Origin: Escherichia coli O157:H7 | GTDB lineage: Bacteria; Pseudomonadota; Gammaproteobacteria; Enterobacterales; Enterobacteriaceae | Assembly (NCBI RefSeq): GCF_013167455.1 | Contig: NZ_CP038328.1 | Reading direction: 5' to 3' (one strand) | DNA: 64,000 bases | Part shown: positions 39,001 to 45,000 of the stretch, piece by piece | Layout: each line of letters opens with the position of its first letter | Numbering within the stretch: the first letter of the stretch is position 1 | Program-made: the position numbers

Positions 39001-42000
39001 CGCGGCACCGGGCAGACGCTGTATATTCTCGACGAGCCGACCACCGGTCTGCACTTCGCCGATATTCAGCAACTGCTCGACGTACTGCATAAACTGCGCG
39101 ATCAGGGCAACACCATTGTGGTGATTGAGCACAATCTCGACGTGATTAAAACCGCTGACTGGATTGTCGACCTGGGGCCGGAAGGCGGCAGTGGCGGCGG
39201 CGAGATCCTCGTCTCCGGTACGCCAGAAACCGTCGCGGAGTGCGAAGCTTCGCATACGGCACGCTTCCTCAAGCCGATGCTGTAATCGTTAAGGCCGCCT
39301 TCCGAGCGGCCTTTTCCTTTCAGAGTTGCACCAGCAATTTACGTTTTTCTTCCGGCAGTAAATTCACCGCCTGCTGATAAGACGCATCCACCAGATAATA
39401 GATTTGCGAATCCGGCAGCGAACCGTCGAGATACACGGTGCTCCAGTGCGCTTTATTCAGATGGCGGCTTGGACGCACATCGCTGTGCTGCTGACGTAGC
39501 AGCTCCGCCAGCTCCGGGCTGGTTTTCAGCGAAACAGCTGGGCGATTTTCTACTTCTTTCACCATCGCAAACAGTACATCTTCCACTTTGATCTGCGTCG
39601 CTTTCCAGTCGTTATGCACGCTCTGTTCTGCGCCTGGTTTTGCCATGCAATATTGTAGCAACTCCGAAATGGTCATTTTTTACTCCCCTTGTAGTGTCGC
39701 GATGATGCGACGCGATCCGCCGTGGATGCGATGTTCCCCCAGCCAAATGCCTTGCCAGGTGCCGGTCTGAATACGCCCTTTATGCACCGGCAATACAAGC
39801 GATGTTCCCAGCATTGAGGATTTGATATGAGAAGGCATATCGTCTGCTCCCTCATAGTCATGCTCATAATTTCCGTTGTCGGGAACGGTGCGGAGGAAAA
39901 AACGCTCCATGTCGTGGCGTACGGTGGGATCGCAGTTCTCATTAAGTGTCAGAGAGGCGGAGGTATGTTGCAGCAACAGATGCAGTAAGCCGATGTTAAC
40001 GCGCGGCATATCAGCCAGCTGATTCAGAATTTCATCCGTTACCAGATGAAACCCACGAGATTTGGCGCTAAGCGTGAGCGTCTTTTGATACCACATGTGC
40101 TGCTCCTTGATAAAACTCTCTTAATCAGTTTGCAGCAAGACAGCGAAAGGATAAAGGTGTGATTAAAAAAACAGCATTCGGGAGAGTGTCACGCTCTCCC
40201 GCTCTGTCAGTATTCTGAATTGACGATCACCTCTTCACCAAACGCACCCGCTTGTGGCAAGGGTTTGTAGGTAGAGTTGGAGGCACGCAGAATGCGGATA
40301 CCACGAGCGCCGACATCGCGTGCGGCGGTAATATCGTTATCGGAATCGCCATAAAAAATTCGGATATTTTTATCCTGCAGCCATTGCGATTTTGTATTTT
40401 GCCCTGGTTTATCGCCCGCAAAGATCACCGGATTCATGCTGGTGGCAGGAATATGAAAATTATCCGCCAGCGTTTTTGAAACCGTTTCTGTTTTCGTCGG
40501 GCTACGACCAGTCACAAAGAAGATCGCGTCACCACGGCGTACATGCATATCAATCAGCTGGCGAGCGACCTCTTTTGGAATGCTGAATTCATCCCAGCCG
40601 TTGTTCATTTTTTCCCAGAATACAGGGTTTTTCAGATAATCTTCGCTTTCTGGCGAGAAGTTTTTTTTGCCGCGCCAGAAGCCCGGACTGGAAAAAAGTA
40701 CCGTGTCATCGATATCAAACCCCACCGCCATTGGCGGACGCCCTGCGAGGCTATTTTCAATTTGTGCGACCGAAACCCAATGAATTGGTGCCTGTTCAGC
40801 AAGCCTGGCAACGTTAGTCCCAGGGTTAAGCGGTGAAGGAGATGAGGCCAGGGCAACAGCGGAACTGTTTAGAGCGAACAATAAGCAAACGGCACTGATT
40901 GCCTGTGTGATCTTGCGCATATTTTTCCCTAAATAGTCAGTATGTTGAAACTTTTTATTGTGAGATTTGTTGCAAAAACTATCTGACCATAACGCCAGCT
41001 ACAGGGGAAAGGAAGGATTATCTGCGGTTTTTGTGATGAAAAGCAGGATGATTATATTTAACCTAGTAAATACGTTCCTGTCGTTTTTTTGTAAAAAATG
41101 GTTAATGCTCGATGTAAGGATACATTAATTTTACGTTTATTATGATGAATACTCTGCAAATGAGCGAAATTTGATAGAACATTTATCTGCTGTACGATTT
41201 AATGAACTTAATGATACAGCATTACAAAAACAATCGAAGTTTATAAAGATGATTTCTGATTGACCAGAACCCTACCCTACAATGGTGATTAATTTTATTA
41301 CTCCCGAAGGAGATGATTATATGAATATATCATATGTGAATAGCAACAAAACGACATCTTTACCTATTGAGTTAGATGTACAAAATAACAAAGATTTTTC
41401 TTATGCCAAAGATTTCTTTTTATATATAGAAACACAGTTAAAAATTGCAAAAGATTTTTGTAGACCTGAAGAAGAAGTATCAAGTTCTATTGCAAGTACA
41501 GTTTTTCACGCTTTTATTGATTTAGTTAACAAAATCATGGGTAAGAAAGATTGTATGTATATTTGCACGCTTTGCTGTTTTGCCGAGGAGGTTAAAGATG
41601 ATTATTCTCATTACAGGACCTTTTCATTTGATATTAGTAATCAATATAAGGTTAAACTTACACAAAGGAGTTCTCTTTAACTTTAGAATTTAATGATACT
41701 GAAATTGAATGTCAGAAAGTCACAGGCAATAAGGCAAAGCATATTCTTGAGGATATAGAAAAATTCTATCGTAACAAACCCGATACTTATTATTAAATTT
41801 AATAATGGTTAGATGTGCAGAAATTATTACTCCACACGAAAAAAACAGGGAAAGGAATTCCAGATAATTGGGATAAACTTAACAATAAAAGAACTAACAA
41901 CGTTTATTATCTCTCACGTAGAACGATGGTATCAAAAAAATCATCTATAAAGAAAGAGTGAAAGCGACGACAGTTTAATTTCACTGCAGGCTGGGTAATT

Positions 42001-45000
42001 CCAGCCTGCTTTCCTGCATTACATCACCGCAGCAAACGCCTTTGCCACACGTTGCACATTTGCCGTATTTAACCCGGCGACACACATGCGACCGCTGGCG
42101 ATGAGATAGACACCAAATTCTTCACGTAGTCGGTCAACCTGAGCGGCACTTAAACCGGTATAACTGAACATGCCGCGCTGATTAAGCAGATAATCGAAAT
42201 TGCGTTCTGGCATCTCTGTGCTTAATACCTTCACCAGTTCCTGACGCATTGCCAGAATGCGAGTACGCATCTCTTCTACTTCCGCCAGCCAGCTGGCTTT
42301 CAATGCCTCGTCATTCAGCACTGCAGCCACCACCTGCGCACCAAAATTCGGCGGGCTGGAGTAGTTGCGGCGAACTGTTGCTTTCAATTGCCCCAGTACG
42401 CGGCCTGCAGCTTCGGCATCTTCACACAGAACAGAAAGTCCGCCGACGCGCTCGCCGTAAAGGGAGAAAATTTTCGAGAACGAATTGCTCACCAGAGCGG
42501 GTAATCCAGCGCTGGCAATGGCGCGAATGGCGTAGGCATCCTCTTCCATACCGGCACCAAATCCTTGATAGGCAATATCAAGGAATGGGATAAGCTCGCG
42601 GGCTTTGAGAATTTCAATCACCGCATCCCACTGGTCATTAGTGAGATCGGCACCCGTTGGGTTGTGGCAACATGGATGCAGCAACACAATACTGCGGGCA
42701 GGTAATGTTTTCAGCATCGCCAACAGGTCATTAAAGCGCACGCCGTTAGTCGCTTCGTCATACCAGGGGTAAGTGCTTACTTCGAATCCAGCCCCGGCGA
42801 ATATTGCTACGTGGTTTTCCCAGGTAGGATCGCTGACCCAGACGCCTGATTCCGGGAAGTAGCGTTTCAGGAAATCCGCGCCCACTTTCAATGCCCCTGA
42901 GCCGCCAAGGGTTTGAATGGTTGCTACGCGCTGTTGTTGCAGTACCGGATGGTCGGCACCAAACAGCAGCGGCGCAATGGCATGGCGATAGCTGTTAAGC
43001 CCTTCCATCGGTAAATAAAGCGAAGCGCCATGAGGCACCGCATTCAGGCGCGCTTCCGCCTCCGCCACGGCTTTCAATTGTGGAATAATTCCGTCTTCGT
43101 TGTAGTACAGACCGATACTTAAATTCACTTTGTCGCTGCGAGGGTCTTCTTTAAAACGCTCCATAAGCGTAAGAATCGGGTCGCCAGCGTAGGCGTCAAC
43201 TTTTTGAAACACGCGATGGTTCTCCAGGTTTACGGGCAGGTGGTTAAAACACAATAAACCGGAAGAAGGCGAAGATCGAGTGGATGTTCAGGGGCGAACG
43301 GCAATTAGCAACAGAGTGAGACTCATGACAAACGTACATCCGCCAGAGGCACGACCTTTATAAGAGCATGAAAGAATATCAACTTATTGAATTGGTAGGA
43401 TTTTATTGGCCGGATAAGGCATTCACGCCGCATCCGGCACAGACAATCAAATATTACAGAACGATTAATCCACGTATTTCATCGCGACCCTTGAAGTCAG
43501 GCGCGTAATAAGTTCGTAAGCGCTTACTTTCGTCATTTCAGCGATACGTTCTACGGGCAAACCTTCACCCCACAAAATGACCGGGTCCCCGGCTTTATCC
43601 TGTGCCTGTGGACCTAAGTCTACGCAGATCATATCCATCGCCACGCGCCCGACAATCGGCACTTCGCGACCGTTCACCAGCACTGGCGTACCGGACGGCG
43701 CGGCGCGCGGATAACCATCGCCATAGCCCATCGCAACTACACCAAGACGAGTATCACGTTCGCTTATCCAGGTTCCACCATAACCGACAGGCTCTCCGAC
43801 TTTATGCTCACGCACGGCAATCAGGCTGGAGGTTAGTGACATCACTGGCTGACAGCCAAAATCGGCACCGGTGGAGCGATCTTCCAGCGGCGAGACGCCA
43901 TAAAGAATGATGCCCGGGCGCACCCAGTCAAAATGCGACTGTGGCCACAGCAGAATGCCACCCGACGCGGCAATGGAACGTTGACCTGGTTTGCCTTCGC
44001 AAAAGGTATTAAAGATAGCGAGTTGTTTCTCGGTTGCGCCACATTTTGGTTCATCCGCGCGCGCAAAATGGCTGACGATATTCACCGGCTGCCGAACGTT
44101 TTTGCACTGGGTCAGGCGATGATAAAACGCCTCAGCCTGTTCCGGCCTTACGCCCAGACGGTGCATACCGGTATCGAGTTTCATCCAGACGGTAACCGGC
44201 TCGTCCAGGCTAGCCTCTTCCAGCGCAGCCAGCTGTTCTTCGTTATGCACGGCGGTATGAAAATGTTGCGCAGAAATCGTCGGCAGATCTCTGGCATCAA
44301 AAAAGCCTTCGAGTAACAGTACAGGTTTGGTGATTCCCCCCGCACGCAGTCGCAGAGCTTCTTCGAGACGGGCTACGCCAAAGGCGTCAGCATCGGGGAG
44401 CGTTCGCGCGGTCTCAAGAAGACCGTGACCATAAGCGTTCGCTTTCACCACCGCAACCATTTTACTGGCAGGTGCCAGTTCACGAAGACGTTGCAGGTTG
44501 TGTCGCAGAGCGCGGCGGTTAATCACAACAGTTGCCGCTTGCATTTGTGTTCCTTGATAAGTGTTTGCTTTAATTACCTAATTCATAAAATAATTATTAT
44601 TCGTCGTCGTACTGCGGCCCCGCATAGTTGTCGAAGCGCGACCATTGACCGTTAAAGGTCAGGCGTACCGTCCCGATTGGGCCGTTACGTTGTTTACCGA
44701 TAATAATTTCCGCGATGCCTTTTAAATCACTGTTTTCGTGATACACCTCATCACGATAGATAAACATGATCAAGTCCGCATCCTGCTCGATAGAGCCAGA
44801 TTCACGCAGGTCGGAGTTGACCGGACGTTTGTCGGCACGTTGTTCCAGAGAACGGTTCAACTGGGACAGCGCCACCACCGGCACGTTCAGTTCTTTCGCC
44901 AGTGCTTTCAGCGAGCGGGAGATTTCTGCAATTTCCAGCGTACGGTTATCGGAAAGTGCCGGTACGCGCATCAGTTGCAGGTAGTCGATCATGATAAGCC

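Follow-up and report, generated by a model that had tools for sequence, protein, structure and literature searches.

What is the AT-rich DNA that separates aphA from tyrB in Escherichia coli O157:H7, and does the open reading frame (ORF) within it still specify a working protein? The spacer (40921-42018, 1098 bases) was analysed as part of a 64,000-nucleotide stretch of contig NZ_CP038328.1, hereafter the window, which is 100% identical to O157:H7 chromosomes. As the original prediction of a 1.1-kb spacer of very low GC had it, the GC content is 0.31 overall (0.28-0.35 in individual 200-base segments) compared with 0.52 for the whole window. The answer that we consider probable is that the spacer consists mainly of a foreign AT-rich islet carrying a decaying gene, yjbS, which is truncated in O157, and that the islet would now be mainly H-NS-silenced spacer DNA. 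The features on which this reading is built are as follows.

40918-40920, minus strand: start codon of aphA
40921-41059, minus strand: ancestral aphA upstream region, present in all E. coli and homologous to Salmonella
41060-42017: yjbS islet, 958 bases, 31% GC, an insertion relative to Salmonella
41120-41260, plus strand: conserved leader block upstream of yjbS
41307-41312, plus strand: Shine-Dalgarno sequence AAGGAG, 8 bases 5′ of the yjbS ATG, read directly from the sequence
41321-41680, plus strand: truncated O157:H7 yjbS allele, 119 amino acids (aa), of which 115 are native and 4 frameshifted
41389-41424, plus strand: 18-bp tandem repeat region encoding SYAKD[FI]
41667-41668, plus strand: junction of a 10-base deletion, where the nearest intact allele has CGGAAAAAAT; it shifts the yjbS frame
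41668-41796, plus strand: out-of-frame C-terminal remnant of yjbS, reading EFSLTLEFNDTEIECQKVTGNKAKHILEDIEKFYRNKPDTYY and then a stop
41797-41985: non-coding, fast-evolving tail of the islet, with small ORFs that lack conservation
41986-42009: GC-rich hairpin, GCAGGCTGG-GTAATT-CCAGCCTGC, between the convergent yjbS and tyrB
42019-42021: stop codon of tyrB

The ORF at 41321-41680 is annotated as the hypothetical protein WP_001303754.1 and is the O157 allele of yjbS, a gene flanked by aphA and tyrB, both of which are read from the other strand. A 119-aa ORF with a good ribosome-binding site had been predicted here, together with a further short open frame just downstream, and both are present: when the spacer was shuffled 2000 times with its dinucleotides preserved, 0.2% of the shuffles gave an ORF that began with ATG and was 119 aa or longer, and the downstream frame proved to be the C-terminal part of yjbS itself. 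The ORF aligns with intact alleles of 161-173 aa, and intact yjbS ORFs of 161, 167 and 173 aa were found across 15 loci. Beyond the deletion junction the old frame remains open to a TAA at 41794-41796 and has no start codon, and because this ancestral frame is still free of stops the lesion in O157 appears to be recent. Upstream of the lesion, the SYAKD[FI] repeat is present as one full unit in O157 and as one, two or three units in other alleles; in L019 it has a period of 18 and 3.6 copies (Tandem Repeats Finder).

Loss of the frame is not confined to O157. We found yjbS broken in O157 by the one 10-base deletion, in K-12 by two 1-base deletions, and also in other lineages. It is intact in strains H19 and WCHEC000837 and in seven of eight further sampled genomes. 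A systematic sample of 30 records comprised 3 of O157 type, 10 of K-12 type and 16 others, and the gene was intact in nine of the ten records that were checked among these 16; we estimate that roughly half of islet-bearing genomes carry an intact copy. Most of the intact alleles checked bear the RefSeq tag "frameshifted", a label that we attribute to annotation pipelines taking fragments of the gene as their references. The pooled pN/pS ratio is 0.46 for yjbS compared with 0.05 for aphA and 0.09 for tyrB, and variable sites fall 14:23:28 by codon position. The synonymous fraction of yjbS was 0.42 against a neutral expectation of 0.26 (P = 0.013), an excess that was not significant over all 18 yjbS alleles (P = 0.11). 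Support for purifying selection on yjbS, which would be weak, is thus modest, and the gene is dispensable.

We conclude that 41060-42017 is an acquired islet, because the aphA–tyrB spacer of Salmonella is only 186 bp long and holds no islet DNA, and because a different element, the Kgu island, fills the same slot in B2-type E. coli. The Salmonella spacer is about 78% identical to window positions 40918-41042, homology being limited to the aphA-proximal part, and B2-type E. coli (L006) matches the window as far as 41059; the ancestral segment 40921-41059 has few variable sites among 17 alleles. Among 5426 complete E. coli genomes the islet is present in 4370 and the Kgu island in 1045, and the two are mutually exclusive across genomes. 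More than 1000 natural genomes lack the islet or have deleted it, and its removal by IS1 has occurred in natural isolates. The idea that the spacer is a horizontally acquired or decaying insert is therefore borne out by the Salmonella state, by the Kgu-bearing genomes and by the several lineages with a broken yjbS, and comparison of E. coli genomes showed that the spacer is not a conserved non-coding stretch in every strain. Variation peaks in the tail of the islet, where nucleotide diversity reaches 0.10-0.13 at 41818-41896 and two small ORFs (41813-41961) do not stay intact, being broken in some other alleles or carrying frameshifts there.

Several candidate vehicles for the islet were considered and set aside. 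A search of the islet for terminal inverted repeats, a target duplication and a recombinase gene returned none beyond short repeats at chance level, among them an 11-base inverted pair near the two islet borders. A downstream 48-aa ORF was examined as an integrase remnant; its match to Arm-DNA-bind_1 (E = 0.075, 13.5 bits) falls below the cut-off of 22 bits, and its frame is broken in K-12. A tblastn search of phages yielded no match that would indicate a phage source, and plasmid matches were mostly to chromosome-sized or very large non-mobilizable records, so a plasmid source was likewise rejected.

At the level of sequence, yjbS is an orphan with no detectable relative outside E. coli/Shigella. 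A word-index search returned 64 matches, all from Escherichia where the source was named, and in a search of 1.84 billion representatives every match was a fragment at least 75% identical to the query, that is, yjbS itself. Among GTDB species representatives, sister Escherichia included, the sole match was on a contig that shows near-identity to E. coli chromosomes. Pfam, NCBIfam, PADLOC and PHROGs gave no family match, and a literature search by O157 locus tags returned nothing relevant. The protein is soluble and lacks a hydrophobic segment, its highest Kyte-Doolittle average over 19 residues being 0.73. A structural model of the full-length protein was poor (pLDDT 53), whereas a model of the core, residues 36-167, was confident (pLDDT 79) and predicts three helices, a five-stranded antiparallel sheet and a C-terminal helix behind a disordered N-terminus that carries the variable hexapeptide repeat. 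No fold match was obtained for YjbS, and the viral fold library gave no significant match. Placed on this core, the O157 truncation takes away the last part of strand 3 and all that follows it, strands 4 and 5 and the final helix, or about 46 of 132 residues (about a third). Judged by the model, the 119-aa O157 product would be non-functional, and the allele would be a young pseudogene whose C-terminal part can still be read downstream.

It could be argued that the 119-aa product is instead a functional, shortened variant specific to the O157 lineage. The start codon and strong ribosome-binding site have been kept, so that the ORF could still be translated, and the exact protein occurs on at least 1000 contigs, with the spacer matched at 99% identity or more by 308 genome records. 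These genomes represent one clone, however, and their agreement carries little weight; the product lacks two and a half strands of the predicted core as well as its last helix, the stop-free remnant downstream is what would be expected soon after a disabling deletion, and K-12 and other strains carry independent yjbS lesions, all of which make a functional variant distinctly unlikely. A related question is what the intact protein does. We think it very unlikely that the intact form still works as a protein peculiar to E. coli, with a fold unrepresented among solved structures, perhaps an H-NS-silenced single-gene factor for defence or host interaction whose repeated losses in K-12-type, O157 and other lineages may reflect adaptation and not neutral decay. 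A more specific proposal, that intact YjbS provides immunity as an orphan of some polymorphic toxin system or else is secreted as an effector, draws on a protein that is small, AT-rich, variable and without homologues, and on the composition of the N-terminal 25 residues: Ser/Thr/Asn/Gln/Pro/Ile make up 48% of them, and the first 16 include no acidic residue. A terminus rich in these residues and free of acidic ones is reminiscent of type III secretion signals, but such composition is weak evidence in AT-rich genes. A CdiI match was returned by the poor full-length model, and CdiI does not appear in the list of the 60 best matches to the better model, that of residues 36-167; PADLOC and Pfam gave no match, and no toxin gene or remnant lies upstream, where the peptide of a 44-codon frame matched only E. 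coli copies of itself, on which ground the upstream block was rejected as a toxin remnant. We regard the immunity or effector proposal as highly improbable.

Two further explanations look beyond YjbS for the element that matters. The spacer had been proposed as a niche for toxin-antitoxin genes or for a small membrane peptide that is toxic, and AT-rich islets are known to harbour such genes; a hydrophobic stretch is present in each of two short ORFs, at 41580-41693 (plus strand) and 41799-41900 (minus strand), and K-12 yjbS is listed as essential in a TraDIS study in which it received few transposon insertions (PMC5821084). Both hydrophobic ORFs begin with TTG, however, one lying in the most variable stretch with a frame that changes between alleles and the other overlapping yjbS out of frame. 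The only ORF conserved across alleles is yjbS itself, which encodes a soluble protein, and no conserved co-oriented pair of adjacent ORFs is found. Pfam, NCBIfam and PADLOC contained no family above threshold, a search of the spacer for an antisense or small RNA partner gave no Rfam family at E values up to 1, more than 1000 natural genomes do without the islet, and scarce transposon insertions are compatible with occlusion by H-NS, a proposal discussed in PMC6785131. A concealed toxin is thus extremely improbable, and this part of the original prediction found no support. The other explanation places the key element in non-coding DNA, so that 41120-41260 would be a site of regulation or of H-NS nucleation, or would encode a small RNA, and the ORF would be incidental. 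Among 17 alleles this block has 7 variable sites in 140 bases compared with about 18% in the yjbS ORF, making it about 3.5 times less variable; it is predicted to fold better than shuffled sequence (z-scores of -3.15 on the plus strand and -2.41 on the minus strand), and in K-12 the region is occupied by RNA polymerase and H-NS but yields little transcript (PMC3661553). On the other hand, the block has no Rfam match, its substitutions are too few for a covariation test, and the predicted folding concerns both strands, a pattern that inverted repeats in the DNA would give. Moreover, an ORF of 161-173 codons has stayed open in DNA of 31% GC among alleles up to 0.2 apart at synonymous sites, and because so long a frame has been kept open across diverged alleles the protein would be, or recently was, the selected unit. 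We therefore consider an incidental ORF unlikely, and the block is probably the promoter and 5′ leader of yjbS. A non-coding function would fit within the decaying-islet reading if 41120-41260 were simply that promoter and leader. In some alleles a 16-base insertion disrupts a small ORF within the block.

At the opposite end of the islet, a tyrB terminator hairpin had been predicted. A GC-rich hairpin with a 9-bp stem and a 6-base loop is present at 41986-42009, and among 17 alleles its stem shows no differences, whereas variation occurs at three positions of the loop. Of the features of an intrinsic terminator it has the GC-rich stem-loop, but no U-run follows the stem on either strand (AGUGAAAUU on the tyrB strand, UUUCCU on the yjbS strand), and a terminator scan made no call at this position. 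The hairpin belongs to the islet, as the hairpins that follow tyrB in B2 strains and in Salmonella are different ones.

The decaying-islet reading also bears on the reported essentiality of yjbS, which a genome-recoding study handles as an essential gene (PMC13287592). Because the K-12 gene is a frameshifted remnant and the islet is absent from about one-fifth of genomes and has been deleted by IS1, the apparent essentiality is most likely an artefact, plausibly of H-NS shielding the DNA from transposition.

Taken together, we propose that E. coli lineages without the Kgu island acquired a 958-base foreign islet, which settled where tyrB ends and the aphA upstream region begins. It carries a single gene, yjbS, transcribed towards tyrB and equipped with its own ribosome-binding site and a conserved leader, and the ancestral product is a soluble protein of 161-173 aa. 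In the O157:H7 lineage the 10-base deletion at 41667/41668 shifted the frame and left a product of 119 aa that would be non-functional, and the islet may now serve mainly as silenced AT-rich spacer that also provides the hairpin after tyrB.

The yjbS locus is already annotated, and H-NS binding to it in K-12 has already been reported; what is new is the corrected gene model. K-12 yjbS (b4621; YJBS_ECOLI, 67 aa, uncharacterised) has the same position and strand as the window ORF, the first 46 residues of its product resemble those of the window ORF with a few substitutions, and the spacer DNA of the two is 94.8% identical. The K-12 protein ends at 67 aa as a result of its two 1-base deletions, whereas the window allele ends at 119 aa as a result of its 10-base deletion, and the K-12 reference protein and the O157 protein are thus both pieces of one gene of 161-173 aa.

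The K-12 tyrB/yjbS interval is one of 78 "promoter islands", was flagged as foreign DNA and shows H-NS binding in two data sets (PMC3661553). The window shares with this H-NS-bound island both its AT-rich composition and 95% identity, and by analogy the islet would also be bound and silenced by H-NS in O157. The interval was treated as intergenic in that study, whereas here it is read as taking in dead yjbS reading frame: from K-12 gene positions and ORF length, at least 97 of the 318 bases of the promoter island, and probably nearly all, would fall within the dead 3′ frame of yjbS.

The KguS/KguR island for alpha-ketoglutarate utilisation in uropathogenic E. coli (c5032-c5041 of CFT073; PMC3694859) occupies exactly the slot of the yjbS islet, starting at the stop codon of tyrB and ending about 139 bases short of aphA, on its upstream side. 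Like the yjbS islet, it is missing from the Salmonella site and has its own hairpin after tyrB. The two have no sequence similarity, and the Kgu island, at 13.7 kb, carries ten genes, metabolic and regulatory, whose functions are known, in contrast to the single gene of the 958-base yjbS islet. The Kgu island is better regarded as filling, in place of the yjbS islet, a slot that both can use, and not simply as inserted into a spacer like that of K-12.

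The original prediction described the DNA between aphA and tyrB as a low-GC spacer carrying a small ORF with a good RBS, a short open frame just downstream and a hairpin at its tyrB end, and each of these features was located. The spacer sequence matches O157:H7 chromosomes at 100% identity and has a GC content of 0.31 (0.28-0.35 per 200-base window) compared with 0.52 for the window. An ATG-started ORF as long as the one found here occurred in 0.2% of 2000 dinucleotide-preserving shuffles. The features are:

40207-40920, - strand: aphA
40921-42018: aphA-tyrB spacer, 1098 bases
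41120-41260: upstream block, 140 bases, much more conserved than the ORF
41321-41680, + strand: ORF of 119 aa, with AAGGAG (41307-41312) 5′ of its start
41986-42009: hairpin after tyrB
42019-43212, - strand: tyrB

The locus is already annotated: RefSeq labels the O157 ORF a hypothetical protein, and in K-12-type strains the same position carries "yjbS: protein YjbS" with 67 aa. The spacers of four strains were aligned and translated. H19 and WCHEC000837 carry a single unbroken 167-aa ORF, running from the ATG used in O157 to a TAA that matches 41794-41796. Relative to this allele, O157 has lost one 18-base repeat unit in frame and has a 10-base deletion at 41667/41668, which shifts the frame and thereby produces the stop at 41678-41680. 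The open frame downstream is the remainder of yjbS, still free of stops in the old frame. K-12 yjbS carries two separate 1-base deletions. O157 yjbS is a freshly made pseudogene, and its product is probably non-functional. The intact alleles checked (161-173 aa; loci L003:1902-2405, L004:1901-2404 and L018-L025) are mostly called "frameshifted" pseudogenes in RefSeq and in one case "incomplete", presumably because truncated proteins serve as references, and in several genomes RefSeq adds a separate 83-aa ORF for the C-terminal part.

Of 5426 complete E. coli genomes, 4370 carry the islet holding yjbS, and yjbS is also found in Shigella flexneri and S. sonnei. Among 30 evenly spaced records from the islet search, three were O157-type, 10 were K-12-type, 16 had other alleles and one had an IS1-associated deletion. 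Ten of the other alleles were translated. Nine were intact, with products of 161, 167 or 173 aa and the 18-base repeat occurring once, twice or three times; the tenth had a lesion at a poly-A run. On these counts, roughly half of islet-bearing genomes have the full gene. Several natural genomes carry IS1, IS5 or ISVsa5 insertions in or next to the islet, or IS1-linked islet deletions, and two have lost the whole islet and part of aphA (IS loci include L005:2288-2985 and L007:5250-5947).

In about 1045 genomes, the match to the window ends at 41059 on the aphA side and resumes at 42018 on the tyrB side, with 13.7 kb between these points encoding KguS/KguR and alpha-ketoglutarate utilisation genes, an island described previously (PMC3694859). 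The two occupants are mutually exclusive and jointly account for 5415 of the 5426 genomes. The Salmonella tyrB-aphA spacer is 186 bp and homologous to E. coli only in its aphA-proximal 125-140 bases, and the hairpin after tyrB differs in each of the three forms. The alternative occupant, the short Salmonella spacer and the three hairpins together indicate that 41060-42017 is an acquired segment. Thus, on comparative evidence, the spacer is an acquired yjbS islet, and with yjbS broken in O157 the suggestion of an acquired, decaying insert held. A search of the islet for terminal repeats, a target duplication or a recombinase found none. An 11-base inverted pair lies near both borders (41040-41050, AAAGCAGGATG; 42002-42012, CAGCCTGCTTT), which is probably due to chance because the region has ten such pairs. 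Between alr and tyrB, B2-type strains (those with the Kgu island) and one islet-bearing strain have a two-gene insert of pnuC and an AAA-family ATPase (L008:592-2150, L010:4501-5504) that is absent from the window. The tyrB-alr spacer contains GCCGGATAAGGCATTCACGCCGCATCCGGCA at 43400-43445, which resembles a REP (repetitive extragenic palindrome) element.

The spacer had also been described as the type of site that can hide toxin-antitoxin or small membrane protein genes, and neither found support from family, RNA or hydropathy tests. YjbS has a GRAVY (mean hydropathy) of -0.37 with no hydrophobic segment and is predicted to be soluble. The full-length structure model was poor (pLDDT 53); residues 36-167 gave pLDDT 79.3 and pTM 0.75, with a predicted core of three helices, a five-stranded antiparallel sheet and a C-terminal helix. 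The O157 frameshift falls within predicted strand 3, with loss of about 46 of 132 core residues, and the K-12 fragment holds the predicted first helix only.

The 167-aa protein had no match in Pfam, NCBIfam, PHROG or PADLOC, and a phage search yielded none. Among 5.8 billion clustered proteins there were 64 matches, all Escherichia where the source was named; HMMER, run exhaustively against 1.84 billion representatives, returned 26, all yjbS fragments at least 75% identical. Database names were all "hypothetical" or "YjbS", and most plasmid matches were to records of chromosome size or to very large, non-mobilizable ones. A one-genome-per-species scan gave a single locus, on a 9.5-kb contig of Flavobacterium paronense CECT 8460 (L009, NZ_JAUFQN010000013.1), which is probably contamination because across aphA-yjbS-tyrB it shares 99.4% identity with K-12-type E. 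coli. Chimeras encoded on short metagenome contigs (P0064, P0056, P0058) join the YjbS N-terminus to unrelated proteins, one of them a fragment of haemolysin E, and are probably assembly artefacts.

Across nine distinct alleles with synonymous divergence up to 0.2, pooled pN/pS was 0.46 for yjbS; in the same strains it was 0.05 for aphA and 0.09 for tyrB. With expectation set by random placement of the same substitutions, the synonymous fraction was 0.42 versus 0.26 in an unbiased sample (P = 0.013) and 0.29 versus 0.24 for all 18 alleles (P = 0.11). Nonsense substitutions were seen only beside one complex lesion. Taken together, yjbS looks weakly constrained and dispensable. The block at 41120-41260 is predicted to fold better than shuffled sequence on both strands; it matched no RNA family, its encoded peptide had no relatives in the searches, and a 16-base insertion interrupts the peptide frame in some alleles. 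We read it as the putative promoter and leader of yjbS.

In published work, yjbS is classed as "essential only by TraDIS" (PMC5821084) and is handled as essential in a recoding study (PMC13287592); macrophage-evolved K-12 lines have IS1 hits in yjbS (PMC4999529). The corrected gene model casts doubt on the reported essentiality, and the model and this doubt are the useful new points. H-NS occlusion was proposed in 2016 to explain the shortage of transposon insertions, as discussed in PMC6785131. In K-12, the tyrB/yjbS interval belongs to a set of 78 "promoter islands" and is marked there as foreign and, from two data sets, as H-NS-bound (PMC3661553). By analogy with K-12, the islet is probably silenced in O157.
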